Shown here in pieces: positions 16,566-64,000 of a stretch of 64,000 bases of DNA. A program made the translations under genes and the position numbers. The notes under the pieces were generated by a model. It made no database searches. It saw only the letters and a program-made list of their open reading frames with translations, and was not told the DNA's origin. Source of the DNA: Polyangiales bacterium (lineage in GTDB: Bacteria; Myxococcota_A; Polyangia; Polyangiales; Polyangiaceae); contig JBBRLQ010000016.1 of assembly GCA_038231275.1 (NCBI GenBank), positions 32,001-96,000 of the forward strand, given 5' to 3'. Numbering within the stretch: position 1 is the first letter of the stretch; the number at the start of each line of letters is the position of its first letter.

Positions 16566-16581
16566 GCAAGTGCTCCGTCGC

Positions 16582-20449: not shown

Positions 20450-20554
20450 GGGGACTGCCTCGAAGAGCGGCGGCTGCGGGCTCTGCAGCTGCCGCTCACC
20501 ATTTAAGGGGTGTAGACTCGCGGGCTGGATTGCACGCCATCGGGGCATCGGACA

Positions 20555-23025: not shown

Positions 23026-23141
23026 GTCGACTCGTCCCCGCCGTCCATTTCTCGTGAATTGAGCAGGCTCCTATGGCATCAAAGAGCCGCAACAACGACC
23101 GCGCGGAGCGCGGGGATACGCGGACCTAGCTCCGCATCGCG

Positions 23142-24605: not shown

Positions 24606-24610
24606 GCTCA

Positions 24611-25639: not shown

Positions 25640-25645
25640 GGAAGC

Positions 25646-26464: not shown

Positions 26465-26616
26465 CGCCCCTGAAAATTGCACAAAATGCTAGCAATATCA
26501 ACCCGATATGCCTGGGGCTGAGGACCGACGCCTATCACACACGAATGCGGCTTGCCTTGAATGCACCCAACTGGCAGAACGCGGTACCGGTAAGCCGGTG
26601 AAATTCAAAGAACATC

Positions 26617-28911: not shown

Positions 28912-28951
28912 GCGGGTCTCCTCACGGAGAGGCGCTCATCGGAGGCGAGCA

Positions 28952-35922: not shown

Positions 35923-36004
35923 GTGGGCAAGGCTGTACCACGGACGGCGCCTCCCTGGAATTCGTGATGCGAGGCGGCGCCGGACCGGGAATTTTGCCGC
36001 AATA

Positions 36005-48125: not shown

Positions 48126-50308
48126 GGCGCCCCCAGCCTGACGCCGTCGGGCGTCGCCGTGAGCGCGCCGAGATCGCGCGGGAGGAGCACGTCGCCCACC
48201 AGGTGCATCGCAGGATCTCGCGCCATCCAGGCCTGAAGCTCGCTCTTCAGGCGCGCGACCTCGGCGGGGTGCGTGTCGGCCACGTCGCGCGTCTCGTCGG
48301 GATCGGCGCTCGTATCGAAGAGCATGTACTTTGCACCCATTCGCGTTGGCGCATACACGAGCTTGTAGCGCTCGTCGCGGACCATGCGGTGCTTGGCGAC
48401 GATCGTGAGCGGCCGCGCGCTCTTCTGGAGGACGACCTCGTCTCCGTGCGCGGGATCGACCTCGGTCATTCGCGCCACGCCCGGGGACGGCAAGCGGAGC
48501 GACGGCGCGAGGCCGGGGATGTCCTCCGTGAACCAGAGCCCTGTCTCCGCGAAGGCGAGCGTCGGCGGGAGCTCGGCGCCGTCGAGCGCGGGCACGAGCG
48601 AGCGCCCGTCGAGATCCATCGGCGCCGCCACCCCGGTCAGCTCGTAGAGGGTCGGCGCGAGATCGACGTCGCGCACGATGCCGGCGTTTCGGCTCGGACG
48701 CGGACGGCGCGGATCCACGACGACGAACGGGATGTGCGTCCCCTCGTCGCCGAAGAGGTGGTCGCCATGTCCCTGCCCGTGCTCTCCCTCGTACAGGGTC
48801 TCGCCGTGATCGGCGGCGATCACCACGATGGTCGGCCCCTTCACCTTCGCGAGCGCATCGAGGACCCGACCGCACGCCGCGTCGACGCTCGCGACCGAGC
48901 CGTCGTAGAGGCCACGGATCTGCTCGATGTCCTCTGCGTCGGGCGGCGCCTCGGCGCCGAGGCCCACCGGCTTGTGGTACTTGAAGCGGCCGCGGTACGA
49001 GGGGCGCGTGAAGCGGCCGTAGTGCGGAGCCGGCGCCGCGTAGGGGAAATGCGCGGTCGAGAAGAAGACCGTGACGAAGAACGGCGCGCCGGAGGACGAC
49101 TCGATGGCCCGGATCGCGTCGTCGGCGAGGAGCTCGGGATCGGCGGCGTCGTTCATCTCGCGCATGACCGGGAACGCCACACGACCGGCGCGCGAGTGCA
49201 AAAAGGGGAGGAGCGGCGTCTGTCGCTCGAGCGCTCGCTGCCTCACGAGCTGCCGGAAATCGAAGGTCGGGACGTCGACACGCCCGAAGCCGAGATCGAC
49301 ACGCCCGAAGATGTCCCCCGCGTAGTCGCTCACGACCGCGGTCCGGTAGCCGGCGGCGGCGAGGCGCGCCGGCAGCGCATCGAAGTCCTTCGCGCGCTCT
49401 TCCCACCGCGGGAACATCGAGCGGATGCCGTGATGGTGCGGGTGACGTCCGCTGAGGAGCGAGACCCACGACGGGAACGTCCGCGGCAGCGACACGTACG
49501 CGCGATCGAAGCGCGCGCCGCGCGACGCGAGCTCGGTGAGGCGAGGCGCGATCGCCGGCGTGAGGCGATCGGCGCGCAGCGAGTCGGCGGCGAGGAGGAG
49601 GACGTTGGGGCGCGGCGCATCGGGGGCCGCGTGCGCGATCTTGACCGGCGGGCCCAGCGGGGCGGCGAACAGCGCGCTCGCGAGGAGACCGAGCAGCAGG
49701 AGGATCGACGCCGCGCCACCCGTCGCCGCGAGCGCGCGACGCCTCGGCAGGAACGCCCGACCGAGCCGCCGCGGCCAGCTCCGCCAGCGCGCGGGGGGGC
49801 CCGCGAGGTACAAGAGGAGGCCGACCGCGCCGATCGCGACGATCCCACGGACCCCGAGGACGTCGGTAGCGAACACCTGCGCCGTCCGGCGGAGGCCACC
49901 CTGCGCGTACCACGCGTCGGCGTACAGCTGCGGCGCCGCAGCCATGCCGCGCAGGACCAGCCACGCGTGCGCGATCGCGGTGACGCCGAGGACCGCCCAC
50001 GCGCGACGAAGCGGCGTGCGGCGAGGCGCGCGGGCCATGCGATCGCGCACGAGGACGAGCGCGTCAGCGAGCGCGCCCATCGCGCCACCCACCACGATCG
50101 AGAGGGCCACGATCGCGATCGTGACGCGCAACACCTCACCGCCGAAGCGATCGTTCACGAAGGTCGTGACGTCGTGCGCGTCGCGGCCGAGGAGCGCGCC
50201 CGAGTCGGCGGATCGTCCGGCGTACGCCGCAAGCGCGGTGAGGTACAGCGCTCCGACCGAGCTCGGTCGAAGGGCGAACCGGTAGATGGGACCGAGGGCT
50301 TCGCGCAC
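48122..50308 (-). CDS. Membrane-anchored sulfatase-like hydrolase/transferase
   Basis: About 5 N-terminal TMs; PNVLLLAADSLRAD, RTFPSW.SLLSG..P..HG, AHFPY, AADHGE, DLAPTL, LFD...DP.E. Confidence 0.87.
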   Translation of the reverse strand: MREALGPIYRFALRPSSVGALYLTALAAYAGRSADSGALLGRDAHDVTTFVNDRFGGEVLRVTIAIVALSIVVGGAMGALADALVLVRDRMARAPRRTPLRRAWAVLGVTAIAHAWLVLRGMAAAPQLYADAWYAQGGLRRTAQVFATDVLGVRGIVAIGAVGLLLYLAGPPARWRSWPRRLGRAFLPRRRALAATGGAASILLLLGLLASALFAAPLGPPVKIAHAAPDAPRPNVLLLAADSLRADRLTPAIAPRLTELASRGARFDRAYVSLPRTFPSWVSLLSGRHPHHHGIRSMFPRWEERAKDFDALPARLAAAGYRTAVVSDYAGDIFGRVDLGFGRVDVPTFDFRQLVRQRALERQTPLLPFLHSRAGRVAFPVMREMNDAADPELLADDAIRAIESSSGAPFFVTVFFSTAHFPYAAPAPHYGRFTRPSYRGRFKYHKPVGLGAEAPPDAEDIEQIRGLYDGSVASVDAACGRVLDALAKVKGPTIVVIAADHGETLYEGEHGQGHGDHLFGDEGTHIPFVVVDPRRPRPSRNAGIVRDVDLAPTLYELTGVAAPMDLDGRSLVPALDGAELPPTLAFAETGLWFTEDIPGLAPSLRLPSPGVARMTEVDPAHGDEVVLQKSARPLTIVAKHRMVRDERYKLVYAPTRMGAKYMLFDTSADPDETRDVADTHPAEVARLKSELQAWMARDPAMHLVGDVLLPRDLGALTATPDGVRLGAP

Positions 50309-50831: not shown

Positions 50832-52061
50832 ATGGCCACCGCCACAAGCAAGCCGCGACTCCGAGCGATCGAGAGCATCGTCGTGACCGATCCCCGTGAC
50901 GGGCGCGTCCTCGTCCTCCGCGACACGCAAGGCGTCGCCGAGGGGCACGTGTCGATGCCGGTCGCGCTCTCCGCCGTGGTCGGGCGATTCACGGGGAGAA
51001 AGACCTGCCGCGAGATCGCGCGCGAGGTCTCGCGCGAGCTCGATCAGGACGTGCCCGAGGAGATCGTCGTGCGCCTCGCCACGCAACTCGAGGACGCCCT
51101 CTACTGCGAGGGGCCGCGCTTCACGGAGGCCCTCGCGCGCGCGCACGACGTCTTCGCCGATCTCGACGTCCGGCCCGCGACCCACGCCGGCGGCGCCTAC
51201 CACGGCGCCAAGGACCAGCTCGCGCGATACCTCGACACCGAGTGCCTCGGCGCCGCGAAGCGAAGCGAGAAGGGACGCATCGTCGGCCTGGTCGCGCCGC
51301 ACATCGATCCGTGGCGCGGCGCGCTCGGCTACGGCCACGCGTACGGCGCGCTCGAGAGCACGCTCTCCGAGGAGGCCGACACGTTCGTGCTCTTCGGCAC
51401 CTCCCACGCGCCGATGCGCCAGCCGTTCGCGCTCTGCCGCAAGGCCTTCGCGACACCGCTCGGTGCGATGAGCGTGGACGCCGACGCCGTCGACGGGCTC
51501 GCGTCCCGCGCGACGTTCGATCCGTACGCCGATCAGTTCAACCACAAGCGCGAACACTCCCTCGAGTTCCAGGTCGTGTTCTTGAAGCACCTCCTCGGCG
51601 AGCGACCGGCGCGCATCGTGCCCATCCTCGCCGGCCTCGGGCGGCACCAGGCGCACGGGACCGATCCGGGCGAGGATGACGCGGTCGTGCGTTTTCTGGA
51701 CGGCGTGCGGGCGCTCGTCGATGCGCGCCCGGGTCGCGTGGTCGTCATCGCCGGCGCAGATCTCGCGCATACCGGTCCGCGCTTCGGCGATTCGCAGGGC
51801 TACGACGCCCACGCGCGCCGCGATCTCGAGACGAAGGACCGTGCGTCTCTTAGGCACGCCGCCGATGTCGCCCCTGCCGCGTTCTGGGACGACGTCGCGG
51901 CCGATCTCGACACCCGACGCGTCTGCGGCCTCGCGCCGATTTACTCGCTCCTCCACGCGCTTCCCGACGGCACGCGCGGGCGCGCGCTCCATTACGAGCA
52001 GAACGTCGATCCCGACGACGGCTCGATCGTCAGCCACGCCGCCGTCGGCTTTTTCTCCTGA
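50832..52061 (+). CDS. amrB: AmmeMemoRadiSam system protein B (MEMO1 family) with N-terminal helical extension
   Basis: R...HAG.AY, VAPHID, LFGTSH, F.TPLG, H..EHSLEFQ, IVPIL, GADLAH.GPRFGD, VCG..PI. Confidence 0.9.
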   Translation: MATATSKPRLRAIESIVVTDPRDGRVLVLRDTQGVAEGHVSMPVALSAVVGRFTGRKTCREIAREVSRELDQDVPEEIVVRLATQLEDALYCEGPRFTEALARAHDVFADLDVRPATHAGGAYHGAKDQLARYLDTECLGAAKRSEKGRIVGLVAPHIDPWRGALGYGHAYGALESTLSEEADTFVLFGTSHAPMRQPFALCRKAFATPLGAMSVDADAVDGLASRATFDPYADQFNHKREHSLEFQVVFLKHLLGERPARIVPILAGLGRHQAHGTDPGEDDAVVRFLDGVRALVDARPGRVVVIAGADLAHTGPRFGDSQGYDAHARRDLETKDRASLRHAADVAPAAFWDDVAADLDTRRVCGLAPIYSLLHALPDGTRGRALHYEQNVDPDDGSIVSHAAVGFFS

Positions 52062-52092
52062 CGTGCCAAGGGCGCGTGGCAAACTGGAGCCG

Positions 52093-52539
52093 ATGAACGA
52101 CGACGACGCCAAGCCGGCCGCAGCCCCGCTCGGGCGTTACCAAGGCCCCGCGCGCGCCGCGCCCTACCCGCTCAGCCGCATGACACCGGCCTTCGATTTG
52201 GTCGACGTCGCAGCCGAGATCCAGCGCGCCGACACGATGCTCGCGACGGTCACCGGCGGCAAGCTCGAGGTCATCGCCGAGCAGATCCGCGTCCTGCAAG
52301 ACAAGGCGCGCGCCCTCCTCGACGCTGCGCGCCGCGACGCCGAGCTCCACCGCATCAAATGCAGCTTCGAGAAGCGCATCGGCGGCGTCTACCACCTCTA
52401 TCGGGAGGAGGATGGGACGGAGTGGTTCTCCCTCATCGCGCCCGACGAGTGGCGGACGAAGCAGACGCACACGTTCCTTGGGACGTATCGGCTGGAGATC
52501 GACATGGGATTTTCGCGGATCGACGGCGGGACACCATGA
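52093..52539 (+). CDS. DUF2452-like protein
   Basis: KLE.IAEQIR.LQ..A, LH...C.F.K..G..YHLY......FSLI.P.EW......LG.YRLE.D..F. Confidence 0.75.
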   Translation: MNDDDAKPAAAPLGRYQGPARAAPYPLSRMTPAFDLVDVAAEIQRADTMLATVTGGKLEVIAEQIRVLQDKARALLDAARRDAELHRIKCSFEKRIGGVYHLYREEDGTEWFSLIAPDEWRTKQTHTFLGTYRLEIDMGFSRIDGGTP

Positions 52540-53159
52540 AGCGACTCCTCGCCTTCGCCTTCGCCCTCGCCGTGACCGCCTGCGGCGCGGCGACTCCGAC
52601 TCCGACTCCGACTCCGACTCCGACTCCGACTCCGACTCCGACTCCGACCCCGACCCCGACCCCGACTCCGACTCCGGCTCCGGCTCCGACTCTCGGCGTC
52701 GGCGTCGGCGCGGACAAGATCGCCCCCTACACTCCCGAGCAGATCCGCGACGCCACGCCGGAAGGACGCACCTACCGCTACCGCATCGTCCGCGAGGGCA
52801 AGCCTGTGCGAATCGACGAGATGAAGTTCGTCCGTGTCGACGCGCAGGGGGCGGATGTCTCGAGCACGTCACGCGAAGAGCCCGCCGCGGCCACCGAGCC
52901 AAAGATCAAGACGGTCACGTGGGCCGAGCTGCGTGCGCACGGCGAGTTCCCGCGCGCGCTCGTCACCGTCGCGGACGAGCCCGTCGACGTCCCCGCCGGC
53001 CACTTCACGTGCATGGTCTTCACGCTGAAGGACGCGGCGAAGAACGAGGTGTCGCGGTTCTACTTCGCGCGCGAGATTCCCGGCGCGCCAGTCCTCTACT
53101 TCACCGAGAAGGATGGCAAGCGCGTGATGACGGCGACGCTCCTCGAGCATCGCCGGTAG
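52536..53159 (+). CDS. Lipoprotein with (Pro-Thr)n linker and small C-terminal beta domain
   Basis: MKRLLAFAFALAVTAC lipobox; E.V.VPAG.F.C motif; ATGA overlap. Confidence 0.75.
   Translation: MKRLLAFAFALAVTACGAATPTPTPTPTPTPTPTPTPTPTPTPTPTPAPAPTLGVGVGADKIAPYTPEQIRDATPEGRTYRYRIVREGKPVRIDEMKFVRVDAQGADVSSTSREEPAAATEPKIKTVTWAELRAHGEFPRALVTVADEPVDVPAGHFTCMVFTLKDAAKNEVSRFYFAREIPGAPVLYFTEKDGKRVMTATLLEHRR
52591..52692 (+). repeat. Hexamer tandem repeat, 17 units (9x cgactc, 3x cgaccc, 2x cgactc, 2x cggctc, 1x cgactc)
   Basis: Counted directly; encodes TPTPTP...PAPAPT. Confidence 0.95.
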
Positions 53160-53518
53160 CCGGCCGCATCGAACTGGGACCACGCGATGCTCCACGTCAC
53201 CGCCACCGCGCCGCGCCCGCCTGGAGCCATGACCATGCGCCGCGCGTAGGTGTCCCTCACGGCGAGGAGACGTCAGTGACGTCGGGGTTCGAGCACGAAG
53301 CGGGAGAGAAGGAACTCGTCGGCAAGTCGGCTTTTTTGGCGGCCCGCCCGTCGGGCTCCTGAGGTCCGCGTCGGTGCGCGTGTACGCCAAACTCCGACTT
53401 TCTTTCTCAGGTCGTCGGAGCTCTTGGCCGTTCCACGCTTCATGCGCGACCCGTCTGCACGCCTCCTTCGCGGCGCACCTGCTGCTCGCACCGGCGCGTC
53501 CCGAGGAGGCCTTGCGCC

Positions 53519-54061
53519 TTGAGCCTCTCCGACGAGCTGCAACGCCTCGTTCCGAACGCGTGCGAGGAGGTCCTGTCCTCGATCGGCTTCCGCGCGAAGG
53601 GATCGAGCTTCGGCGACGTGACAGGCGTGCTCGCGCGGCCGCAGGAATACGCGGCGGGGATGACCGACTTCTTCGGCGAGGCGATGACCGGGAAGCTCGT
53701 GCTGGTGAGCACCTTCGACTTCTTCGCAAAATCCGGCCCCAATCGCTGCACGCCGCTGAACATCGAGTCGGCGCGCGACTGGATCCGCGTGCGTGACTGG
53801 ACAATGGAGCTGTCGAACCAGCTCGTCGGGCGCGTGAAGAACCGGCTCTGCACGCTCGGGGTCTCCCTGGACACGCGCCTCCCCAAGGCGGCGTCGGGCC
53901 ACGCGCTCACCGTCATCGTTCGCGAGCGGAAGCGTCCCCCTATCCTCTTCATCGCGGGCGGGCACGACGTCCGCGTCTGGTTCGAGGCGACCGTGAACGA
54001 GCAAGCCGGTCGCGGGCCCCGTGTCGATCCACTGGGCGAAGGGGACGTCGTCTGTTTCTGA
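53519..54061 (+). CDS. CheX-family phosphatase-like protein
   Basis: F.G...G.LVL, RDW..ELSNQLVGRVKN.L (ExxN), C-terminal EGDVVCF; GAGGAGG RBS 9 nt before TTG. Confidence 0.78.
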   Translation: MSLSDELQRLVPNACEEVLSSIGFRAKGSSFGDVTGVLARPQEYAAGMTDFFGEAMTGKLVLVSTFDFFAKSGPNRCTPLNIESARDWIRVRDWTMELSNQLVGRVKNRLCTLGVSLDTRLPKAASGHALTVIVRERKRPPILFIAGGHDVRVWFEATVNEQAGRGPRVDPLGEGDVVCF

Positions 54062-54138
54062 GCGGCGCTCCTACCCCGCCCCACCAAAGGAAGGCGGACC
54101 GATCAAGTCGGGGTGGTCACCAGCCGTTCCTCCAACGG

Positions 54139-56340
54139 ATGGCCTCGTTCACATCACGGCCCGAGGTGCGCGCAGAGAACGGAGCGCGACGACGCTTCGT
54201 CTCTGTCGGCACCAAGCTGACGGGCGCGATGCTCGTGGTGCTGTGCGTCGTGACCGGGTTCGCCTACTTCGAGGTGAGCCGGCACGAGACCGAGGTGCTC
54301 CTGTCGTCGAAGGCGCGCGCGGCGTTGATGGTGAGCGATCTGTTCGCCGCAGGCGTGACCGCTCCGCTCTCCTTCGGCGACGAGCCTGGCGTGCGCGAGC
54401 ACATCGCCCAGCTGATGGCGAACGCCAACATCGTGTATGGCGGCGTGTGGGCCGTCGATCCGGCGCATCCCGGGGAGCGCGGCGAGCTCGTGGGTGAAAC
54501 GGCGCGGGGGTCCGACGTTCCCCCAGCGCCGCGGGAGATCCCCGCCAAAACCAACCTGACGGGCACCCCGCTCGTGTTCGTCGTCGAAGAGCCGGTTGCC
54601 GGCGCTTCGGGCGAGCTCCTAGGTGTCGCGCGCGTCGCGTTTTCGCTGCAGCCCCAAAACGCCGCGATCGCGGCCGCGAAAGACCGGACGTTGGCGACGT
54701 CCCTGGCGATGGGCTTCGTCCTCGCCGCGGTCCTCCTCGCGCTCTCGCGCACGCTGGTCGTCCGCAGGCTCGCCAGCCTCGCCCGCGCCGCCAAACGCCT
54801 GGAGGACGGCAGCGACGTCGACGTCGACGTCGACAGCAACGATGAAGTCGGCCACCTCGCACGTGCGTTCACGAGCATGAGCGCCGCCATCGCCAGCCGC
54901 GAAGCGCGCATCGTCTCCCGCAACCGCGACTTGAGACGCGTCCTCGACAACGTGGCCGAGGGCCTCATGACCGTCAAGAAGGACGGAGCGATGTCCGACG
55001 AGCGCTCCCGCGTCCTCGACCAGTGGTTCGGCGTCCCCGCGGAGAGCGCGAAGATCTTCGACTACTTCGAAGCCTTCGCGCCGGAGGTCGGGCGACTCTT
55101 GCGCATCGGCTGGCTCGCGCTCGAGGATGATTTCATGCCCGTCGAGGTGATCCTCGATCAATTGCCGCGACGCTTTCGCCACGGCCCGCGCGCCTTCGAC
55201 GTCGACTACTCGCCGATCTGGAAGGGTCGCGACAACGAGCTGGTCTTGGACGAGATCCTCGTCGTGGTGCGCGACGTCACGTCGTCGGTCGAGCGCGAGC
55301 GGGCCGAGCAAAGTCAACGCGAGGCGCTCCGCGTATTTCGGCACATTTTGCTCGATCCCGCAGGATTCCGCGGGTTCATGCAGGCTACCGCGCACCTCCT
55401 CGACGTCATCGAGCAGAACGCGCACGACGCGCCGCGCTCGCGCCGCGACATCCATACGCTCAACGGCAACGCGGCGCTCTACGGGCTCGAGAGCCTCTCC
55501 GCCGCCTGCCACCGCATCGAATCGCGTCTTCAGGACGAAGGGGGCGCGCCGACCGCCGCGGACCTCGTGGAGCTCCGCGCCGCGTGGGACCTCGTGTGTG
55601 CGCTCGCGTCGGATCTCGACGGACCGGCGCGGCGGCCGCACGTGGAGCTCCGGACCGAGGAGTACGAGCGTCATCTCGCGGAAATCGAGCGTGGCGCCGC
55701 GCATGCAGAGCTCGCCGCGACCGCGCGCGCATGGACCCACGAGCTCGCCGAGCGCCGCCTCGAGCGCATCGTCGAACAAGCTCGCTCGATCGCGCGGCGC
55801 GTGGGCAAGGCCGACGTGACGATCGAAGCGCACGCCCGACCCACCGCGTTGCGTCTCCCCGTGGCCCGCTGGGCGCCGTTTTGGAGCGTCTTCACCCACG
55901 TGCTTCGCAACACCCTCGATCATGGCATCGAGACGAACCAGGAGCGCGTCGCGACGGGAAAAACCGGGAGCGGCCGCGTCGACATCACCCTGTCGACGAC
56001 GCGCACCTCCGTCGAGCTTCGCGTCGAGGACGACGGTGGTGGGATCGCGTGGGAAAAAGTACGCGAGCGCGCCGTCGGGCTCGGCCTCGCCCACGACTCC
56101 CACTCGGATCTGGAGGAGGCGCTGTACGTCGATCGCATGACCACACGCCACTCGGTCACCGAGATCTCGGGTCGCGGCGTCGGCCTCGGGGCGGTCCGCG
56201 AGGTCGTCGTCGGCTGCGGTGGCACGATCGCCCTCGAAACCTCGCCCGGCCGCGGCACCGTATTCGTGTTCCGATTCCCCCTCGCCATGCTCGAGGACGC
56301 ACGAAGCAGCGCGCCGTCCACGACCCCCAAGGTGGCGTAG
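54139..56340 (+). CDS. Membrane CheA-like histidine kinase: TM-periplasmic-TM-HAMP-PAS-Hpt-HATPase, no CheW domain
   Basis: Two TMs; SNDEVGHLARAF..M (HAMP); VLDNV.EGL (PAS-like); IHTLNGNA (Hpt); HVLRNTLDHGIE, EDDGGG, ISGRGVGLGAV, GRGT.F. Confidence 0.88.
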   Translation: MASFTSRPEVRAENGARRRFVSVGTKLTGAMLVVLCVVTGFAYFEVSRHETEVLLSSKARAALMVSDLFAAGVTAPLSFGDEPGVREHIAQLMANANIVYGGVWAVDPAHPGERGELVGETARGSDVPPAPREIPAKTNLTGTPLVFVVEEPVAGASGELLGVARVAFSLQPQNAAIAAAKDRTLATSLAMGFVLAAVLLALSRTLVVRRLASLARAAKRLEDGSDVDVDVDSNDEVGHLARAFTSMSAAIASREARIVSRNRDLRRVLDNVAEGLMTVKKDGAMSDERSRVLDQWFGVPAESAKIFDYFEAFAPEVGRLLRIGWLALEDDFMPVEVILDQLPRRFRHGPRAFDVDYSPIWKGRDNELVLDEILVVVRDVTSSVERERAEQSQREALRVFRHILLDPAGFRGFMQATAHLLDVIEQNAHDAPRSRRDIHTLNGNAALYGLESLSAACHRIESRLQDEGGAPTAADLVELRAAWDLVCALASDLDGPARRPHVELRTEEYERHLAEIERGAAHAELAATARAWTHELAERRLERIVEQARSIARRVGKADVTIEAHARPTALRLPVARWAPFWSVFTHVLRNTLDHGIETNQERVATGKTGSGRVDITLSTTRTSVELRVEDDGGGIAWEKVRERAVGLGLAHDSHSDLEEALYVDRMTTRHSVTEISGRGVGLGAVREVVVGCGGTIALETSPGRGTVFVFRFPLAMLEDARSSAPSTTPKVA

Positions 56341-56395
56341 GCGACACGCTTCTTTCGGCTACAGGCTGGAGCCGACCGCCCGTTCACCTGAGGTC

Positions 56396-57622
56396 ATGGA
56401 CCGGACCCGCGCCGCAAACTTCGACCGGAACGCAGACCACGGGCAGGTCACGCACGACGCAGGCGAGGTCACCGGCATCCGGAAGAGCGTGCCCGCGCGG
56501 GCCTCGCGAACGCGCGTCGAGGTGGACCTCGCGGCGATCGTCGCCAACGCGCGCGACGTGAAAGAACGCGTCGGCCACGGCACAGGCGTGCTCGCGATGC
56601 TGAAGGCGAACGCGTACGGCCACGGTCTCCTCCCGGTCGCCCACGCGCTCGCGCTGGACGGGACGATCGCGGGCATGGTGGTCACGACGCAAGCCGACGG
56701 CCTCGCGCTCCGCCGGAGCGGCATTGGGACGCCCATCCTCGTCCTCGGTGCCGGCTCCGTCACCGATCCTCGCGCCGGGCTCGACGCGGGGCTCGTCCCC
56801 GTCCTCGCGTCGGTCAGCGATCTCGAAGCCGTGGCGCGCGCGGCGCGGGCGCGAGGCCTGCGTGCGGCCGTCCACGTGAAGCTCGACACGGGAATGGGGC
56901 GCCTCGGCGTGAAGGAGGCCGACGTTCACGCGTTCCTGCGCGCGGCGAGCCGCTGTCCCGAGATCGCGATCGTCGGACTCTGCACGCATCTCACGTCCGC
57001 GGACGACGGCGATCCGGCGCAGAGCGATCACCAGCTCGCGGCCTTCGAAGGGGCATACGCGGCCTTCGCCGCCGCCGGGCATTGGCCGACGGAGCTCCAC
57101 GTCGCGAACACCGCGGCCACGTTTCGTTTACCCCGTACGCACTTCTCGCACGTGCGCACCGGGATCGCGCTGTTCGGAGGCGACGAGCCGAGCGGCGCGC
57201 GACTACGGCCGGCGATGCGGCTCGTCACACACGTCGCCGAGGTCCGCGCCGTGGCGACGGGCGACGGTGTCTCGTACGGCGCGACGTGGCGTGCCCCGCG
57301 CCCCTCGCGGATCGCGACGCTCCCCGTCGGCTATTCCTCGGGCTACCCGCGACGGCTCGCCGGGCGCGCCGAAGTGCTCGTCCACGGACGCCGCTGCCCC
57401 GTGGTCGGCCTCATCTGCATGGAGGCCTGCATGGTCGACGTGACGGACCTTCCCTTCGACGTGACCGTCGGCGACGACGTCGTGCTCTTCGGAGACGACG
57501 GTGCGGACCGGATCCTCGCGACCGACCTGGCGCAGGCGACCGGTGGAATCGTCGAAGAAATTTTTTGCGGCATCCCACGAGACCTGCCGCGCGAATACCG
57601 CGACGCGGGAGCCCCACGATGA
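56396..57622 (+). CDS. Alanine racemase-family PLP racemase (divergent, substrate uncertain)
   Basis: EVDL.AI..N, AMLKANAYGHG, HVKLDTGMGRLG, THL..AD, R.GIAL, VSYGATW, P.GY..GY.R. Confidence 0.9.
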   Translation: MDRTRAANFDRNADHGQVTHDAGEVTGIRKSVPARASRTRVEVDLAAIVANARDVKERVGHGTGVLAMLKANAYGHGLLPVAHALALDGTIAGMVVTTQADGLALRRSGIGTPILVLGAGSVTDPRAGLDAGLVPVLASVSDLEAVARAARARGLRAAVHVKLDTGMGRLGVKEADVHAFLRAASRCPEIAIVGLCTHLTSADDGDPAQSDHQLAAFEGAYAAFAAAGHWPTELHVANTAATFRLPRTHFSHVRTGIALFGGDEPSGARLRPAMRLVTHVAEVRAVATGDGVSYGATWRAPRPSRIATLPVGYSSGYPRRLAGRAEVLVHGRRCPVVGLICMEACMVDVTDLPFDVTVGDDVVLFGDDGADRILATDLAQATGGIVEEIFCGIPRDLPREYRDAGAPR

Positions 57623-60600
57623 CGTCCCTCCGAGCCACGACACGCGCATCCCTGGACGATACGGGTCTCCTCGCGATCGCCGGTGCCCACTCGGCGTCAC
57701 CGGGGGCCGCGCTCATCGGCGTCGTCGCGGGCTTGCTCACGCGTTACTCCGGCAAGACCGCGGTGACGTTGCGTGTCGACGTCGACGGCGTCGCCCGCCG
57801 GTTGCGCGTCGACGTCGATGGAGCCCCGAGCACCGGTGAGCTCGTTTCCCGCGCCGAGGTCGCGCTCGCCGCCGCCGTCGCCGACGAGAGCCGGTCGGAA
57901 GGGCACGCGCTCCCGGGAATCGTCGACGACGCCGATGTGCACGTCGTGCTCGGCCCGGTGACGGACACGGAAGGCGCCGATCTGGTTATTTCCGCGTCGA
58001 AAGGCGGCATCGATCTCGACTTCGGCGCGCGCATCGAAGCCATCGCGGCGGACCGGATCACGTCCCACGTGTCGACGCTGATCGCGGCGATGGCGTCCGC
58101 CGCCGACGCACGCGCTGCGGTGGCGATGCCCGTGGCCTGTTTGCCCCTGGTCGATGGGGAAGAGCACGCCTGGCTCCTCGCGCGCTCGAACGCCTGCAAC
58201 ATCCTCTGGAACGAGGCGCTCCCCAGCGTCGTCGCCCTGTTCGAGGCGCACGCGCGGAAAACGCCGGACGCTCCCGCACTGCAAGAGGGCGCCCGCACCT
58301 ACACGTACGCGGAGACCAACGCCGCCGCCGATGCGTTGGCTGCACTACTGCGTGCGCGCGTCGGCGACGAGAATCGACGCGTGGCCGTGTACCTCGAACG
58401 CGGCGCGTACGCCGTGATCGCGTTCCTGGGAATTCTCAAGGCGCGCGCGACGTACGTGCCGATCGACGTCACCTACCCGCAAGGGCGTGTGGCCGCGATC
58501 CTCGCCGTGGCGGCGCCCGCCGTCCTGCTCACCCGCGCCGCGTTGTCCGCGGACGCGTCGGCGAGCCTCGAATTCGCGCCCCCTCGCGTGCTCGTCGACG
58601 ATCCCGCACGCGACGAAGCCGAAGGCGCGCGCATCGTGGACGTGCCGCCCGGCGCGACGACGGTGCGGCCCGACGACATCGCCTACACGATCTTCACCTC
58701 GGGCTCGACGGGCCAGCCGAAGGGTGTCGTCGTCGATCATCGAGCGCTCGCCAGCTACGCGCGCGCCGTCACCGACGCCTACGGCCTCGGCGCGCATGAT
58801 CGAGTCCTCCAAGCCGCGTCGCTCGGCTTCGATCTCAGCCTCGAAGAGATCGTCATCACGTTGACCGCCGGCGCGTGCCTCGTCTTCCGCAGCGCCGCGC
58901 CCATCGCGTCGGTCCAGTCGTTCGTCGCCGAGTGCGACGCCGCACGCCTCACCGTCCTCAGCATCACGTCGGCGCTCTGGCACGAGCTGACGCTGCGCCT
59001 CGACGACGGCTCCGTGCGCCTCCCGGAGCGCGTGCGCCTCGTGATCCTCGGCGCGGACGTCGCGCGCCCCGACATCCTCACGGTGTGGAGGCGCGCCACC
59101 GACCCGTCGATACGCCTCGTGAACAGCTACGGTTTGACTGAGACGACTATCGTTGCGACGGTGTGGGAAGACACGCGCGCGCCGCTCGGCGAAGGTCTCC
59201 GCGCGTTGCCCGTAGGACGGCCTCTCCGCAACGCCTCCACCTACGTGCTCGACGCGCACTCCGCGTTCGTCCCCGTCGGCGTCGCCGGCGAAGTCTGCGT
59301 GGGCGGCCTCGCGGTCGCGCGTGGATACCTCGGCGACGAAGCGCTCACCCGCGCGCGGTTCGTACCCGACCCGTTTCTCCCCGGCCATCTCATGTACCGG
59401 ACGGGCGACCGCGGCATCCTCGGAGCCGGCGGCGACCTGCAGTTTCTCGGGCGCGCCGACTACCAGATCAAGGTAAACGGCGTACGCATCGAGCTCGGGG
59501 AGATCGAGACGCGGCTCCGCGAGCTCCCGGGTGTCGTGGAGGGCGTCGTCGTCGCGCAAAAAAACCACGCGGGCGAGACCGAGCTCGACGCGCACGTGAT
59601 GGTCACGTCGTCGGCGGTGACCGCGGAAGCACTGCGGGCACACCTGCAGCTCGTCATCCCGCTCGCAGCCGTCCCCGCGCGATTCCACGTAGTCGACCGT
59701 TTCCCCCTCACGCCGGCGGGCAAGATCGATCGGCGCGCCCTCGCCGCACGCGTGACGCCGTCGTTGCGGGTCGCCGGCGTGGACCAGACGCCGCCGTCGA
59801 CGCCGACCGAAGAGCTGGTCGTGCGCGCGATCGCCGAGGTCCTCGGTCGGCCCAGCGTGGGCGTTCTCGACGACTTCGTCCGCCTCGGAGGGACCTCCTT
59901 GGCGGCGGTCCGCGCCGCGTCGCTCCTCGCGCATCGAATGTCGCGGCCCGTGCGCGCACAGGTCTTCCTCGACGGGAGAACCCTTCGGGAGGCATCGGCG
60001 GACCTCGCGAGCCCCATGCACACCCACGCCACGTCGCTCGTTCCATTGGGATCGATCGCGCGCGATCAGGCGCTCGATCCGGCGATCGTCGCGCTCGGCG
60101 ACGTCGCGGGTCGGGGCACGCTCGCGAACGTGCTCGTGACCGGCGCCACCGGCTTCTTCGGCGCCTTCGTGCTGGCCGAGCTCCTCCGCGAGACGTCGGG
60201 CCACGTCACGTGCATCGTGCGCGCCGCGTCGCTGGAGGAGGCACGCGCGCGACTAGTCGCGAACGCCGAGCGTCTCGAATGCGGCATCGAGCCCGACGCG
60301 TGGTCGCGGGTGACCGCGGTCGCGGGAGACCTCGCTGCGCCGTTCTTGGGCCTCGCCCCCGCCGACTACAAGCGCCTCGCCGCCACCGTCGACACGGTCT
60401 TCCACGTCGGCGCGCGCGTGAACATGATGCTGCCGTATAGCGCGCTGCGCGGGAGCAACGTCGTCGCCGTCGAATCCGTCCTTCGCTTCGCCACGACCGC
60501 GCGCGCGAAGACCGTGCACCACGTCTCGACGGTGGAGGTCCTCGCCGACACCGATCCGGGCGATCCCCAGGCGCGCCAAGAGCGTCGCGCCGCGGCCACG

Positions 60601-61308
60601 CCCGAGCTCCTCCACGAGGGGTATGGGCAAACGAAGTGGGTCGCCGAAAAGCTCGTCGAGGAGGCCCGCGCACGGGGAATTCACGCGTACATCCACCGGC
60701 CGGGGAGGCTCATGGGCCACTCGCGCACCGGCGCGTTCAACGCCGAGGATTTCCTCGTTCGCATGCTCGCGGCGTGCGTCGAGCTCGGCGCCGTTCCGCA
60801 CCTCGAGACGACCGTCGATCTCACGGCCGTGGACGACGCGAGCCGCATGCTCGTGCGCCTCGCGCGACGTTGCCCCTCGCGGGTCGACACGTTCCACCTC
60901 GTCCACCCCGAGGGGAAGACCTGGGCGTCGCTCGTGGCGGATCTCGGGCGTACGGGCGCGCGCGTGCAACTGCTCCCCCACGCCGAGTGGCAAGAGCTCT
61001 TGCAGAAACGCGCGGCGACGAGCGAGCGCGGCGACTTCTTGCGGTACTTGGCGGGAATGTCAGGCGATGTGCTGGAGGCCCAGATCGCCGGCGGCTTCGC
61101 TTCGGACAAGACCCGCGCCGTGCTGGAGGCGGACGTCTCGTGCGCGCCCGTCGACGCGCGGCTCCTCGCGACGTACATCCGCGCGCTGGGCACCGCCGGC
61201 ATCTTCCCCGCGCCGACGCCGTCGCTGAGCCCCAAGACGCGCGGCTCCGTCTTCCCTCCGCCGCGAGACGCGCGCGGCCGCGTGCAGAGCGCCGAAGAGA
61301 CGTCGTGA
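57619..61308 (+). CDS. NRPS-like reductase: degenerate condensation remnant, adenylation, thiolation and terminal thioester reductase domains (C*-A-T-R)
   Basis: AYTIFTSGSTGQPKG, FDLS, NSYGLTE, YRTGD, GRADYQIK.NG.RIELGEIE, PLTPAGKIDR; T: DDFVRLGGTSL; R: VLVTGATGFFG, GDL..P.LGL, GYGQTKW.AE; ATG at 57619 overlaps the racemase stop. Confidence 0.92.
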   Translation: MTSLRATTRASLDDTGLLAIAGAHSASPGAALIGVVAGLLTRYSGKTAVTLRVDVDGVARRLRVDVDGAPSTGELVSRAEVALAAAVADESRSEGHALPGIVDDADVHVVLGPVTDTEGADLVISASKGGIDLDFGARIEAIAADRITSHVSTLIAAMASAADARAAVAMPVACLPLVDGEEHAWLLARSNACNILWNEALPSVVALFEAHARKTPDAPALQEGARTYTYAETNAAADALAALLRARVGDENRRVAVYLERGAYAVIAFLGILKARATYVPIDVTYPQGRVAAILAVAAPAVLLTRAALSADASASLEFAPPRVLVDDPARDEAEGARIVDVPPGATTVRPDDIAYTIFTSGSTGQPKGVVVDHRALASYARAVTDAYGLGAHDRVLQAASLGFDLSLEEIVITLTAGACLVFRSAAPIASVQSFVAECDAARLTVLSITSALWHELTLRLDDGSVRLPERVRLVILGADVARPDILTVWRRATDPSIRLVNSYGLTETTIVATVWEDTRAPLGEGLRALPVGRPLRNASTYVLDAHSAFVPVGVAGEVCVGGLAVARGYLGDEALTRARFVPDPFLPGHLMYRTGDRGILGAGGDLQFLGRADYQIKVNGVRIELGEIETRLRELPGVVEGVVVAQKNHAGETELDAHVMVTSSAVTAEALRAHLQLVIPLAAVPARFHVVDRFPLTPAGKIDRRALAARVTPSLRVAGVDQTPPSTPTEELVVRAIAEVLGRPSVGVLDDFVRLGGTSLAAVRAASLLAHRMSRPVRAQVFLDGRTLREASADLASPMHTHATSLVPLGSIARDQALDPAIVALGDVAGRGTLANVLVTGATGFFGAFVLAELLRETSGHVTCIVRAASLEEARARLVANAERLECGIEPDAWSRVTAVAGDLAAPFLGLAPADYKRLAATVDTVFHVGARVNMMLPYSALRGSNVVAVESVLRFATTARAKTVHHVSTVEVLADTDPGDPQARQERRAAATPELLHEGYGQTKWVAEKLVEEARARGIHAYIHRPGRLMGHSRTGAFNAEDFLVRMLAACVELGAVPHLETTVDLTAVDDASRMLVRLARRCPSRVDTFHLVHPEGKTWASLVADLGRTGARVQLLPHAEWQELLQKRAATSERGDFLRYLAGMSGDVLEAQIAGGFASDKTRAVLEADVSCAPVDARLLATYIRALGTAGIFPAPTPSLSPKTRGSVFPPPRDARGRVQSAEETS

Positions 61309-62930
61309 CCGCTCCTTCGATGGAAGACGGCCCGAAGGTCGAGCGCTCGCTGTCACGGCGCGACGTCGTCCTCTTCCTCGTGTGCACGCTCGTCGGTCTC
61401 GACACGCTGGGCAGCGTCGCGGCCCACGGGGGCGAAGGCTTCGTGTGGCTGCTTGTGATGGCCGCGACGTTCTTCGTCCCCTACGCCCTCACGGTCGCCG
61501 AGCTCGGCGCCGCGTTCCCCCAGGAAGGCGGCGCGTACGTGTGGACCAAGCTCGCGTTCGGCCGCTCCGTCGCCGCGCTGAACGCCGTCTTCTATTGGAT
61601 CTCGAACCCGATCTGGCTCGGCGGCGCGCTCACGATCACCGCCATCACCACGTTCGAGACGTTCTTCGTTCCCCTCGGCCTCGTCGGCAAGTGTGTCTTC
61701 GGGCTCGCGCTGGTCTGGGGTTCCGTCGCGAGCGCCGTCGTCTCGCTTCGTGTCGGCGCGTGGATCACCCGGTGCGGCGCGGTTGCACGCGTGGCCCTCC
61801 TCGTTCTCTTCACGGGCACCGTCGCCATCTACGCCGCACGGCACGGCGTCCACGGCGCGCGTCTCCCGCAATTTTCGCCGACGTACGACGGTTTTTTCGC
61901 GGTCGTGCCGCTCCTCTTCTTCAACTTCGTCGGCTTCGAGCTTCCCAGCGCCGCCGGCGGAGAAATGGTCGATCCTCGCCGCGACGTGCCCTTCGCCGTC
62001 GCGCGCGCAGCCATCGCGGCCGTCGTTTGCTACGGCGTCCCCATCCTCGCCATCTTGCTGGTCCTCCCCACGGAGCGCATCACCGGGCTCAAGGGCTTCG
62101 TCGACACCATGCAGCTGGTCTTCACGGTGTACGGCGGCCACGTACAGCCCGCCGCCGGCGGCGGCGAGATCGTCGTCCTCGAAGGGGCCGGCAGAGTCAT
62201 GGGCGCCGTCGCCGCGATCGGCTTCATCGTCGCGCTCGCGACGAGCGGCATCACCTGGATCATGGGCGCCGACCGAAGCCAGGCGGTCGCCTGCCTCGAC
62301 GGAGGCGGCCCGCGATGGCTCGGCTCGTTCGAGAACCGGTGGGGTACGCCGGTGGCCCTCAACGTGGCCTCGGGCATCGTCGCCACGCTGGTCATGCTCG
62401 CGGCGTTCGCGGTCACCGGCGGCGACTCCGAGAAATTCTTCGCCGCGTCGTTGAACCTCGGAATCTCCACGACGACGCTCTCCTACCTCGTCATCTTCCC
62501 CACGCTCTTCCTGCTCCGACGGAAATCCCGCGACGTCGCGCGCCCCTACCGCGTGCCCGGCGGCGACGTCGGGGCGTTCGTCGCCAGCGTGCTGACCACC
62601 GGATGGGCCTGTTTCGCAGCGATCGGGCTCCTTTGGCCAGGCTTCGGCCGGCGCGGCGATCCCGACGCGGCGTTGCCCTCCGGCTTCGTCACCCTCGACG
62701 CGCATGGAATGGTCGTGGCGTCCGAGCGGGCGCTCTTCGAGCTCACCCAGATCGTACCGCTCGTGATTTTCCTCGCGCTCGGCGTTCTTCTCCTGGCGCG
62801 CGGGCGGCGCGAGCGAGCGCTCAAGGAGCGACCCGTCTCCGCGCCTGCACGCGCCTCAAGCCTTCGCCCTTCGCGCCGTTCATCCGAAGGATGCATCTCC
62901 GTTCGCCCGGCTCGCTTGTCCGTGCCCTGA
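61305..62930 (+). CDS. APC family amino acid permease/antiporter
   Basis: FFVPYAL..AELG..FP.EGG.YVW...AFG, F.FVGFE, EM.DPRRD.P, GTP, RPYRVPGG; about 12 TMs; GTGA overlap with the NRPS stop. Confidence 0.92.
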   Translation: MTAPSMEDGPKVERSLSRRDVVLFLVCTLVGLDTLGSVAAHGGEGFVWLLVMAATFFVPYALTVAELGAAFPQEGGAYVWTKLAFGRSVAALNAVFYWISNPIWLGGALTITAITTFETFFVPLGLVGKCVFGLALVWGSVASAVVSLRVGAWITRCGAVARVALLVLFTGTVAIYAARHGVHGARLPQFSPTYDGFFAVVPLLFFNFVGFELPSAAGGEMVDPRRDVPFAVARAAIAAVVCYGVPILAILLVLPTERITGLKGFVDTMQLVFTVYGGHVQPAAGGGEIVVLEGAGRVMGAVAAIGFIVALATSGITWIMGADRSQAVACLDGGGPRWLGSFENRWGTPVALNVASGIVATLVMLAAFAVTGGDSEKFFAASLNLGISTTTLSYLVIFPTLFLLRRKSRDVARPYRVPGGDVGAFVASVLTTGWACFAAIGLLWPGFGRRGDPDAALPSGFVTLDAHGMVVASERALFELTQIVPLVIFLALGVLLLARGRRERALKERPVSAPARASSLRPSRRSSEGCISVRPARLSVP

Positions 62931-63790
62931 TCACCGCCGGCCTCGTCTCCGGCGTCCTCGCCTGGGCGACGCCCTCCGCGGCGCAAGCGCCGAGTCCCGA
63001 CGATCCCACGCCACAGGCGCCGCCGGCGCCCGTCGGCATCTCCGGGCTCTTGTCGAACAGCCTCGTCCTTCGCGGAAATCCCGCCGAGTCCACACTCATC
63101 ACTGTGCTCTCCGCCGGCTACTCGTGGACCCCCGCGCTGTCGACGTTCGTGCGCATTGGATCGGTGCACAATGCATCCAGTGACACGTCGAGCGCCACCG
63201 GCCTCGCCAATCCCGCGCTCGGGGCGAGCCTGCAATTTCCCATCGGAAAGCACTTCATCGTCGGCGGCACCTCCGGGCTCACGCTCCCCATCGGCTCCGG
63301 CGGCGGAAACGGGCCTTCGGCGGCGGCCTTTCGCGCGTGGAACAACAGCATCGACTGGGGCGGCGCGATGTTCGCCGTCGACCACCTGGACATCTTCAAC
63401 GGCGTCCGCGCCTCGTTCGCCGCGGGCGCGCTCACCGTCCAATTCGAATCGATCCTCCACGAGCTCGTGCGCGTACGCGGCGAGGCCATCGACCCCATCG
63501 GCGCCGCCGCGAGCGTGACAGGCACCACGGCGACGGTGTCGTACGCGGTCATCCCACGACTCACCCTGTCGACCGCGCTCTCGGAGACGCGCTTCTGGAA
63601 CACGCCGGTCTACATTACGCAAAGCCCTGACTCGCGCGTCGACTACTTCTTCTCCGCGGGAGCCTCGACGAGCCTGAAATTGGGCGCGCTCGATCTCACG
63701 CCAGGCCTCGTGTACGCGCGCGCGCTCGATCTGCCGCTCGCAACTTCCCGCTTTCAGGTGCTCGAGGCGGATATCGGTTTCTCGCTTTGA
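62891..63790 (+). CDS. Exported protein, probable outer-membrane beta-barrel
   Basis: Signal peptide (LITAGLVSGVLAWATPSAA), G.ANP.LG, TLPIG.G, alternating strands, C-terminal ADIGFSL. Confidence 0.62.
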   Translation: MHLRSPGSLVRALITAGLVSGVLAWATPSAAQAPSPDDPTPQAPPAPVGISGLLSNSLVLRGNPAESTLITVLSAGYSWTPALSTFVRIGSVHNASSDTSSATGLANPALGASLQFPIGKHFIVGGTSGLTLPIGSGGGNGPSAAAFRAWNNSIDWGGAMFAVDHLDIFNGVRASFAAGALTVQFESILHELVRVRGEAIDPIGAAASVTGTTATVSYAVIPRLTLSTALSETRFWNTPVYITQSPDSRVDYFFSAGASTSLKLGALDLTPGLVYARALDLPLATSRFQVLEADIGFSL

Positions 63791-63843
63791 TTCCCGTGGT
63801 TGCCCCCTAAGCTCGCCGCCCCCTCGCGCCGTTTACCCAGTTC

Positions 63844-64000
63844 ATGGCACGCGGACGCTGGGCACGACGGAGGGGGGCTCCCATCGGGGGGCTCGTTTCG
63901 CTCGTCGCGCTCGCGTTGACGTCGGCGATCGCGCGCGCAGACGACGAAGAGGATCTCGCGGGGCTTCTCGACGAGCACGTCGTCAGCGGGGCGTCGAAGA
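63844..64000 (+). CDS. Partial gene, probable TonB-dependent receptor N-terminus
   Basis: Translates to MARGRWARRRGAPIGGLVSLVALALTSAIARA-DDEEDLAGLLDEHVVSGASK; signal peptide plus DL..LL...VV..ASK typical of TBDR plug starts; truncated by the window end. Confidence 0.55.
   Translation, partial: MARGRWARRRGAPIGGLVSLVALALTSAIARADDEEDLAGLLDEHVVSGASK

Follow-up and report, generated by a model that had tools for sequence, protein, structure and literature searches.

A racemase and an NRPS-like amino-acid reductase as a probable conserved pair in uncultured Myxococcota

Introduction

Reductive release from a one-module nonribosomal peptide synthetase (NRPS) and the supply of an assembly line by a pyridoxal phosphate (PLP)-dependent racemase are known kinds of chemistry. 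Stand-alone enzymes composed of adenylation (A), thiolation (T), and reductase (R) domains and acting as amino-acid reductases that release amino aldehydes include PvfC, the AusA-type enzymes, and the fungal piperazine and pyrazine enzymes; PLP racemases feed NRPS A domains in the cyclosporin and HC-toxin systems, and the provision of D-amino acids to assembly lines by a separate racemase is an accepted concept. Here we analyze a locus that encodes a racemase and an NRPS-like A-T-R enzyme side by side, within a cluster of six complete genes and the start of a seventh at positions 53519 to 64000 of a 64,000-nucleotide stretch of DNA from a Polyangiales bacterium (assembly GCA_038231275.1, contig JBBRLQ010000016.1, positions 32,001 to 96,000; hereafter, the window). 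A preliminary description of this DNA had read all seven genes as one undescribed system that makes, exports, and senses an amino-acid-derived compound. The part that recurs across genomes is, in our analysis, smaller, and probably consists of the racemase and the NRPS-like enzyme (hereafter, the NRPS).

With the stand-alone A-T-R enzymes, the window NRPS shares a single module for adenylation, thiolation, and reductive release. Relative to those systems, it differs in that the racemase and the A-T-R enzyme appear to form a conserved pair, in carrying a putative remnant of a condensation (C) domain, and in being confined so far to uncultured Myxococcota; its match to the AusA model (372.6 bits) is far below the cut-off of 2500. 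Closer still is MxcG, the myxochelin enzyme, which, according to the available excerpts of PMC8400222, loads L-lysine, releases an aldehyde, and can reduce it on to the alcohol. MxcG is the top NCBIfam model (NF038078) for the window NRPS, both over the whole protein (640.8 bits) and over the A domain alone (393.8 bits), and a carrier domain followed by a terminal NAD(P)H reductase is common to the window protein, MxcG, and the SfaD-type Lys-loading C-A-T-R enzymes. Unlike MxcG, however, the window NRPS seems to retain only the C-terminal lobe of the condensation domain, without the His motif, is accompanied by an apparently dedicated racemase, and scores far under the equivalog cut-off of 2300.

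The racemase, in turn, has the fold, the PLP lysine, and the catalytic tyrosine of Alr, Lyr, Bar, and AlrTt. As described in the available portions of PMC3485190 and PMC4517790, an inner-layer tyrosine (Tyr354 in the Geobacillus enzyme) confines the Alr active site to alanine, and the residue is Thr391 in the lysine-preferring Lyr, Ala393 in the broad-spectrum Bar, and Gln360 in the relaxed AlrTt. This tyrosine is likewise replaced in the window racemase, but by Glu, which those portions of the two papers do not give as a natural residue. Further differences from the described relatives are that the Glu gate is coupled with an Asp-to-Glu replacement in the CMD motif and that the protein has no obvious signal peptide.

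Results

Pairing of the racemase and NRPS genes

The cluster is operon-like, and tight packing by itself is ordinary operon structure; there is evidence beyond chance because the pair formed by the racemase (56396 to 57622, + strand) and NRPS (57619 to 61308, + strand) genes appears to be conserved across genomes. Co-location was assessed by a proxy rather than by reading the contigs, namely identity to the base pair of the sizes of the contigs carrying each protein; no size was duplicated within the lists. By this measure, a racemase of the Glu type, that is, with Glu at the inner-layer position, lies on a contig of the same size for 18 of the 33 NRPS orthologues, and the proportion is 12 of 15 among orthologues located on contigs of at least 20 kb. 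Three contigs are so small (5773, 6305, and 7927 bp) that most of each is taken up by the two genes, leaving less than 3.1 kb. Consistently, the racemase and NRPS distance matrices are correlated, with a Mantel r of 0.913 over 19 pairs including that of the window, a value as high as which was obtained in none of 2000 permutations. We consider the racemase-NRPS pair to be a conserved unit, as far as contig sizes and protein distances can indicate. The fixed pairing appears to be new and has been seen so far only in uncultured Myxococcota. Literature searches, which set the limits within which the pair can be called uncharacterized, returned no description of a cluster combining a racemase with an A-T-R enzyme, with or without a permease.

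An NRPS with a truncated condensation domain

The NRPS is a protein of 1229 amino acids in which Pfam recognizes an A domain (AMP-binding, 58240-59724, 255.9 bits), a T domain (PP-binding, 59815-59997, 30.1 bits), and an R domain (NAD_binding_4, 60130-61212, 204.1 bits). Two NCBIfam models, Thioester-redct (TIGR01746, 295.1 bits) and AA-adenyl-dom (TIGR01733, 387 bits), are matched above their respective cut-offs of 213.35 and 317.4, and the best solved match of the R domain is the MxaA reductase (4u7w, 244 bits). Identity as the α-aminoadipate reductase Lys2 was considered and rejected, the score being 352.8 bits against a cut-off of 1030. The protein belongs to a sharply delimited family of 33 orthologues of about 1200 amino acids, with 52-59% identity to the window protein, after which the next match drops to 33%. 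All 33 come from metagenome-assembled genomes (MAGs) of Myxococcota or from metagenomes, and most are full length, nine falling below 95% of the length of the window protein. A search of genome contigs with the single NRPS protein as query recovered only generic NRPS loci at 27-37% identity (L001-L009) and no orthologous locus.

Across 32 aligned sequences, key residues of all three domains are invariant. These include the α-amino-binding Asp (D405) and the A10 Lys (K702) of the A domain, together with L406, E409, S448, L477, I511, and V512; G757, G758, and the phosphopantetheine-attachment Ser (S760) of the carrier; and, in the reductase, the nucleotide-binding T841, G842, T844, G845, and G848 and the Tyr/Lys pair Y1002 and K1006. 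The region ahead of the A domain is different in kind. An HHxxxDG-like motif upstream of A3 is found in none of the 34 family members, in agreement with the earlier suggestion of an A-T-R enzyme with a crippled C domain. The MxcG model begins to align to the NRPS, whose putative C-domain remnant spans 57619-58218, only at model position 367. In two orthologues, the N-terminus gives a sub-threshold match to the Condensation profile that covers positions 227-283 of its 456. Mean column conservation of the remnant is 0.58, compared with 0.72-0.78 for the A, T, and R domains, and the N-terminal 200-210 residues of the window NRPS, when searched alone, match no Pfam or NCBIfam model. In our reading, the N-terminal region is what is left of a C domain, its C-terminal lobe, now probably a structural platform; this reading draws on the full-length MxcG alignment and the two orthologues. 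Because the catalytic N-lobe would have been lost, the enzyme would no longer acylate its substrate. As a conserved family, the C-lobe-A-T-R architecture appears to be new.

The likeness to MxcG also brings to mind a decayed myxochelin-type siderophore locus, in which a truncated MxcG beside an uptake receptor would be either functionless or dependent on 2,3-dihydroxybenzoate (DHB) genes elsewhere in the genome. MxcG does give the best NCBIfam score, both over the full protein and over the A domain alone, some of the NRPS orthologues are labeled MxcG by JGI, and a possible receptor gene lies downstream. The truncation, however, is common to 34 of 34 members, and, because it is shared by all of them while the A, T, and R motifs are invariant, purifying selection rather than decay is indicated. 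Moreover, an enzyme without the His motif cannot acylate, and the MxcG score of 640.8 bits is far below the cut-off. Finally, 2,3-DHB (MxcC-F), isochorismate-pathway, and aryl-carrier families are absent from the 36 other open reading frames (ORFs) of the window, a result that bears on the window rather than on the whole genome and agrees with the absence of 2,3-DHB genes reported in the preliminary description. Taken with the intact A, T, and R motifs, these points make a decayed siderophore locus extremely improbable.

A racemase clade with glutamate at the gating position

The racemase gene encodes an Alr-fold PLP enzyme of 408 amino acids with Pfam matches to Ala_racemase_N (194.9 bits) and Ala_racemase_C (140.6 bits). 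The catalytic residues K70 and Y294 are retained, and the protein passes the alr model TIGR00492 (266.9 bits, cut-off 168). Its similarity is highest to alanine racemases (197 bits), followed by a broad-spectrum racemase (152 bits) and a lysine racemase (116 bits). It nevertheless departs from alanine racemases at the position that restricts their substrate: E387 aligns with the inner-layer Tyr of the Mycobacterium and Bacillus Alr structures, and E343 stands in place of the CMD-motif Asp. The sequence reads G-R-L-G after the conserved Arg, which differs from what marks Bar and Lyr (Ala or Thr in the inner layer and Asn after the Arg).

Both replacements characterize a discrete group. Among the best 120 relatives, the inner-layer residue is Glu in 63, the other 57 comprising 55 with Tyr, one with Trp, and one in which the position is uncovered. 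The Glu-type sequences rank first, accounting for 63 of the 67 top listed matches, whereas the next 53 consist of 52 with Tyr and one with Trp; all 63 clade members covering the position carry Glu. Position 343 follows the same division, being Glu in 100% of the Glu-type clade and Asp in 100% of the 56 Tyr- or Trp-type sequences. In a tree built from 83 of 85 sequences, two fragments having been dropped, the Glu-type racemases form one monophyletic clade of 63 on a long branch with a support of 0.997. This Glu-gated clade appears to be new. That the window protein is an ordinary housekeeping alr placed by accident beside an unrelated NRPS was rejected in view of the clade-specific substitutions and the conserved pairing. 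Because it belongs to the Glu-for-Tyr clade and 18 of the 33 NRPS orthologues share a contig with a clade member, the racemase is, on this comparative evidence, a dedicated partner of the NRPS and not a housekeeping enzyme.

Substrate and proposed pathway

Several leads point to a basic amino acid, namely lysine (Lys), ornithine (Orn), diaminobutyric acid (Dab), or diaminopropionic acid (Dap), as the candidate substrate. The A-domain pocket has an invariant Glu (E409) at position 239, which we take to be typical of Lys-, Orn-, and Dab-activating domains, and against the model of the Lys-activating MxcG the A domain on its own reaches 393.8 bits, about 90 bits above any other specific NRPS model, the next being PRK05691 (306.5) and SolG (299.6). 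The specificity position of the racemase is acidic, and the nearest solved relatives of the permease, GadC and AdiC, exchange amino acids for amines. We give a basic substrate about an even chance: as proposed in the preliminary description it is plausible from the pocket Glu, the racemase Glu, the MxcG score, and the permease relatives, although the A-domain specificity code found no counterpart in the literature.

Myxobacteria emit volatile dimethylpyrazines, and the two enzymes might instead be an alanine pair, with the racemase supplying D-Ala and the A-T-R enzyme reducing Ala to alaninal or alaninol, for example toward such pyrazines. The racemase is closest to true alanine racemases, passes the alr cut-off, and has its catalytic Lys and Tyr intact, and the A-domain pocket contains Leu at position 236 and a bulky Leu at position 301. 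By contrast, the gating Tyr has become Glu in 63 of 63 covering clade members and is kept by 52 of the next 53 matches, and the invariant Glu at pocket position 239 would be unexpected in an alanine-activating enzyme. Saturation mutagenesis of AlrTt at the inner-layer position, as reported in the available part of PMC4517790, showed that charged residues including Glu reduced alanine racemization. With the gate altered throughout the clade, alanine seems an unlikely substrate.

For the racemase-NRPS unit with a non-alanine substrate, we propose the following sequence of events. The cytoplasmic racemase, its gate rebuilt by the Glu-for-Tyr and Glu-for-Asp replacements, would interconvert the L and D forms of the amino acid. 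The A domain of the NRPS would adenylate that amino acid and attach it to Ser760 of the carrier; the R domain, using NAD(P)H, would then release it as an α-amino aldehyde, possibly with further reduction to the amino alcohol, as in MxcG and MxaA. The NRPS itself may be a descendant of an MxcG-type C-A-T-R synthetase that lost the catalytic N-lobe of the condensation domain; because of this loss, it would reduce a free rather than an acylated amino acid. The cluster thus probably makes a reduced amino-acid product, and its two core enzymes represent an uncharacterized variant of the known reductive-release NRPS chemistry. With their translational coupling, the APC permease and the outer-membrane channel of 12 strands would most likely export the product, possibly in exchange for its precursor. 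The kinase and the CheX-like protein would be lineage-variable neighbors that may regulate the operon in some genomes, and they stand outside the conserved definition.

The permease and the outer-membrane barrel

The permease gene starts either at 61305 (GTG; 541 amino acids) or at 61320 (ATG; 536 amino acids) and ends at 62930 on the + strand; the start of an orthologue aligns to query residue 12. Its product has about 12-13 hydrophobic segments and matches Pfam AA_permease_2 with 129 bits (gathering score 27). GadC and AdiC, which like it belong to the APC superfamily, are its best solved relatives, but very distant ones (46.6 and 37.3 bits), and the best NCBIfam match, to the GadC-type Gln/GABA antiporter, reaches 99.3 bits, far below the cut-off of 650.

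The next gene (62891 to 63790, + strand) encodes a protein of 299 amino acids with a signal peptide. It has no Pfam or NCBIfam match, and 234 relatives were found at E ≤ 1e-3 in the representative library. An AlphaFold2 (AF2) model built from a 72-sequence alignment (pLDDT 90.1, pTM 0.81) contains about 12 long strands by DSSP and an internal helix. Foldseek comparison of the model with the PDB returned FapF (5o68; E 8.3e-9, TM-scores 0.59/0.67) and a COG4313 channel (4rl8; E 1e-8, TM-scores 0.58/0.64), by which the predicted COG4313/FapF-like outer-membrane β-barrel fold is confirmed at the level of the model. The 12-strand barrel with its internal helix is the feature shared with Pput2725, the COG4313 protein of Pseudomonas putida, and with FapF (TM-scores 0.57-0.67, probability 1.00), although sequence identity to these structures is only 10-14%. 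A distant relative of the barrel (P0361) also matches Pfam Phenol_MetA_deg (PF13557; 25.7 bits, gathering score 22), whereas the window barrel and two of its close orthologues (P0320 and P0322) have no Pfam match.

One further library sequence (P0323) is an ORF of 740 residues, of which the first 460 show 60% identity to the permease and the last 280 show 54% identity to the barrel. Because it joins the two orthologues in frame, a second genome at least has permease and barrel side by side and in this order. As the APC permease of P0323 runs in frame into the signal peptide of the barrel, it may be a real fusion with signal peptidase processing or an artifact of gene calling or a frameshift. 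The seventh ORF (63844 to 64000, + strand) leaves the window after 52 codons; its signal-peptide-like 52 residues match no Pfam or NCBIfam model, a length on which its earlier label of TonB-dependent receptor is not verifiable.

What points to export through permease and barrel is the translational coupling, and the opposite direction has also to be weighed. Receptor, barrel, and permease could import an external amino acid or D-amino acid, to be racemized and reduced inside the cell as a building block, for instance an amino alcohol destined for a lipid or for some larger metabolite assembled elsewhere. APC carriers are bidirectional, the seventh gene may be an uptake receptor, and the available text of PMC4493636 implicates COG4313-type barrels in uptake. 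Nevertheless, the nearest solved relatives of the permease are precursor/product antiporters, the receptor label is unverified, and the window holds no downstream tailoring or assembly genes. Uptake consequently strikes us as very unlikely, and export of the product of the racemase-NRPS unit is the direction we retain.

The kinase and the CheX-like protein

Upstream of the racemase lies a gene (54139 to 56340, + strand) for a membrane-bound, CheA-like histidine kinase of the Hpt type with 733 amino acids. Hydrophobic segments at residues ~20-48 and ~183-212 flank an outside domain of ~135 amino acids, and they are followed by HAMP (54754-54891, 36.0 bits), a conserved PAS-like region, Hpt (55375-55590, 34.2 bits), and a CheA-like ATPase (HATPase_c, 55894-56286, 57.7 bits). 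Pfam finds no HisKA, CheW-like, receiver, or CheA dimerization (P3) domain in this protein. In the query and its 71 relatives of full architecture, conservation reaches at least 95% for the Hpt motif H439-T-L-x-G and for the N, G1, and G2 boxes. The Hpt domain with its conserved His and the CheA-like ATPase are what the kinase shares with CheA, whereas the membrane segments, HAMP, and PAS-like region, and the lack of dimerization and CheW-like domains, set it apart; CheA models match only residues 584-717, with a best score of 104 bits against a cut-off of 950. Members of the family (~70 sequences, P0121-P0191) come from Polyangiaceae, Labilithrix, and other Myxococcota MAGs and share this unusual build without HisKA, CheW-like, or receiver domains; a few carry CHASE8 or DUF4154 (YfiR-like) N-terminal domains. 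The window kinase gave no 100% self-match in the protein search, whereas the NRPS and the racemase did.

The first gene of the cluster (53519 to 54061, + strand; TTG start) encodes the CheX-like protein of 180 amino acids. The Pfam CheX match is sub-threshold (17.5 bits, gathering score 27), an Atlas feature search places the protein with CheX clusters at 0.94, 0.93, and 0.93, and a single-sequence AF2 model is unusable (pLDDT 29.9). Within the stretch aligned by Pfam is an E97-x-x-N100 pair that resembles the catalytic pair of CheX, in which, according to the accessible part of PMC3035606, Asn99 and an acidic residue inserted into the target are used. The protein is a possible response-regulator phosphatase and an accessory neighbor, although it falls below the threshold for CheX and has no CheY-like gene nearby.

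Were the seven genes a single circuit, an amino-aldehyde or cyclic-imine product would be exported, re-enter through the receptor and the barrel, and be detected by the Hpt-type kinase, while the CheX-like protein would reset a response regulator. All the genes run in one direction, the gaps are short, and the junctions are free of terminator-like sites; in the kinase, two membrane segments enclose an outside domain, and the His and ATPase motifs are conserved. The kinase family also recurs with the racemase or the NRPS on seven contigs beyond that of the window (six listed racemases share a contig with it), some of only 10-14.5 kb and scattered over several branches of the racemase tree. Yet, the kinase is found on a same-size contig with only 3 of the 33 NRPS orthologues, or 2 of the 15 on contigs of at least 20 kb. 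Furthermore, 6 of 10 contigs of at least 20 kb that carry close kinase orthologues (≥51% identity) lack both the racemase and the NRPS, and the largest racemase subclade, with ~30 leaves of which seven are on contigs of 14-64 kb, has no linked kinase. No response regulator was detected among 43 called ORFs scanned with Pfam (7 of the cluster and 36 other), the CheX assignment is sub-threshold, and the receptor amounts to 52 unverifiable residues. A seven-gene circuit thus appears improbable to us. Sensing as a fixed part of the system is not supported: judged by contig sharing, conservation does not extend to the seven-gene circuit, which might still exist in this lineage, and the kinase, although it recurs, is a neighbor that can be dispensed with, the proposed sensing part being an occasional one.

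Gene layout and junctions

The G+C content of the window is ~70%, and the raw ORF lists are crowded with spurious frames; combining the lists with frame statistics for third-position G+C content (GC3) yielded a single consistent series of genes on the + strand, running from 53.5 kb to the window end and comprising the six complete genes and the first 52 codons of the seventh. The racemase stop and the NRPS start are joined by ATGA at 57619-57622, the NRPS stop and the possible GTG start of the permease by GTGA at 61305-61308 (the alternative ATG being at 61320), and the permease gene runs 40 nt into the barrel gene. The remaining gaps measure 77, 55, and 53 nt. This layout, including the co-directional arrangement, both four-nucleotide junctions, the permease overlap, and the short gaps (53-77 nt), bears out the preliminary description. 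Its domain labels fared unevenly: HAMP, Hpt, and HATPase, the racemase, the A-T-R enzyme, and AA_permease_2 stand by Pfam, and the barrel by model and fold, whereas CheX stays below threshold and the TonB-dependent receptor cannot be verified.

A consensus scan found no terminator-like site in the junctions of the cluster and one weak terminator-like hairpin upstream of it (53318 to 53331, + strand), which is a possible left boundary of the transcript, albeit a weak mark, such sites being rarer than expected from shuffled sequence (2 in 12 kb, compared with 4.8 expected). A GAGGAGG box (53503-53509) lies 9 nt ahead of the TTG start of the CheX-like gene. A promoter scan detected no sigma-70-like sites, and a search of positions 52000-64000 at a relaxed Rfam threshold detected no riboswitch or regulatory RNA apart from one chance match to a miRNA model (E 0.23). 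None of the six complete proteins matches a defense-system model in PADLOC.

Neighboring genes

The genes upstream of the cluster look unrelated to it; they include two sulfatases, a CxxCxxCC protein, a Memo-like protein, and a Pro/Thr-repeat protein. The sulfatase-family genes are large and arranged in tandem (45420-50308, - strand; 901 and 728 amino acids), with long N-terminal regions outside the sulfatase domain. The repeat protein (52449-53159, + strand) is small, has no Pfam match, and consists of a lipoprotein-like N-terminus followed by a long Thr-Pro repeat, the opposite strand of which gives a spurious ORF with Ser-Glu and Gly-Ser repeats. A homologue of SRP54/Ffh with 695 amino acids (34264-36351, - strand) matches SRP54_N only from residue 148, indicating a long extension at the N-terminus unless the start was set too far upstream in the gene call.

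A nonulosonic-acid-type sugar pathway occupies positions 2-5667, with a Polysacc_synt_2 dehydratase, a DegT aminotransferase, a GT28-like protein, a NeuB synthase, and a methyltransferase, and a cytidylyltransferase fused to an aldo/keto reductase (20555-22207) is a further part of it. Positions 15576-31525 contain surface-polysaccharide genes for a polysaccharide deacetylase, a FemAB/GNAT-like protein, an MBOAT protein, a Wzz/GNVR tyrosine-kinase-type co-polymerase, and a large Wzy_C protein, with genes for Kelch- and RCC1-repeat proteins interspersed.

Discussion

Collectively, these results favor a conserved core of two enzymes, the racemase and the NRPS, with the mechanism proposed above as its best explanation, and we put the probability of this reading at roughly 60%. 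A number of observations weigh against it. Fifteen of the 33 NRPS orthologues lack a size-matched contig with a listed racemase, and three of these are on contigs of at least 20 kb, one of them 4.03 Mb long; conversely, 10 contigs of at least 10 kb with a Glu-type racemase carry no listed NRPS orthologue. On contigs longer than 30 kb, moreover, matching size does not establish adjacency. The racemase is overall nearest to ordinary alanine racemases and lies above the NCBI cut-off for alr. As for the substrate, the ten-residue code of the A domain (D L E S V L S I V K) was read by hand via motif register with no benchmark, a literature search returned no published match to the specificity-code strings, and the bulky Leu at position 301 may favor a short side chain. 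The window contains no phosphopantetheinyl transferase, and the Rfam search of positions 52000-64000 yielded no riboswitch or other regulatory RNA that would give a clue to the ligand.

We infer substrate, stereoisomer, depth of reduction, direction of transport, and regulation from the comparisons above, and the identity of the product and any role as a signal purely so. At its most far-reaching, the locus might represent an unrecognized class of myxobacterial small molecules, in which a D-configured basic amino aldehyde, cyclic imine, or amino alcohol would be made by the Glu-gated racemase and the C-lobe-A-T-R enzyme, would cross both membranes through the APC antiporter and the COG4313-like channel, and would in some lineages be wired to the Hpt-type kinase and the CheX-like phosphatase in the manner of an autoinducer. 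We regard this extension as distinctly unlikely and mention it as a speculation. A self-contained signaling circuit would, if true, be the more striking outcome, but the evidence does not carry it.

Even the more modest reading of a two-enzyme unit would have consequences. The racemase clade would stand as a new class of specificity among enzymes of the alanine-racemase fold, in which Glu takes the place of the alanine-gating Tyr, and the NRPS would be a clean natural case in which the catalytic half of a condensation domain was shed to leave a reductase of free amino acids. Both genes are small enough for joint expression, and the substrate would be approachable by simple enzyme assays. The family is found so far only in uncultured members of the Myxococcota, a group prized for its natural products, and to that extent the chemistry of its product would be new.

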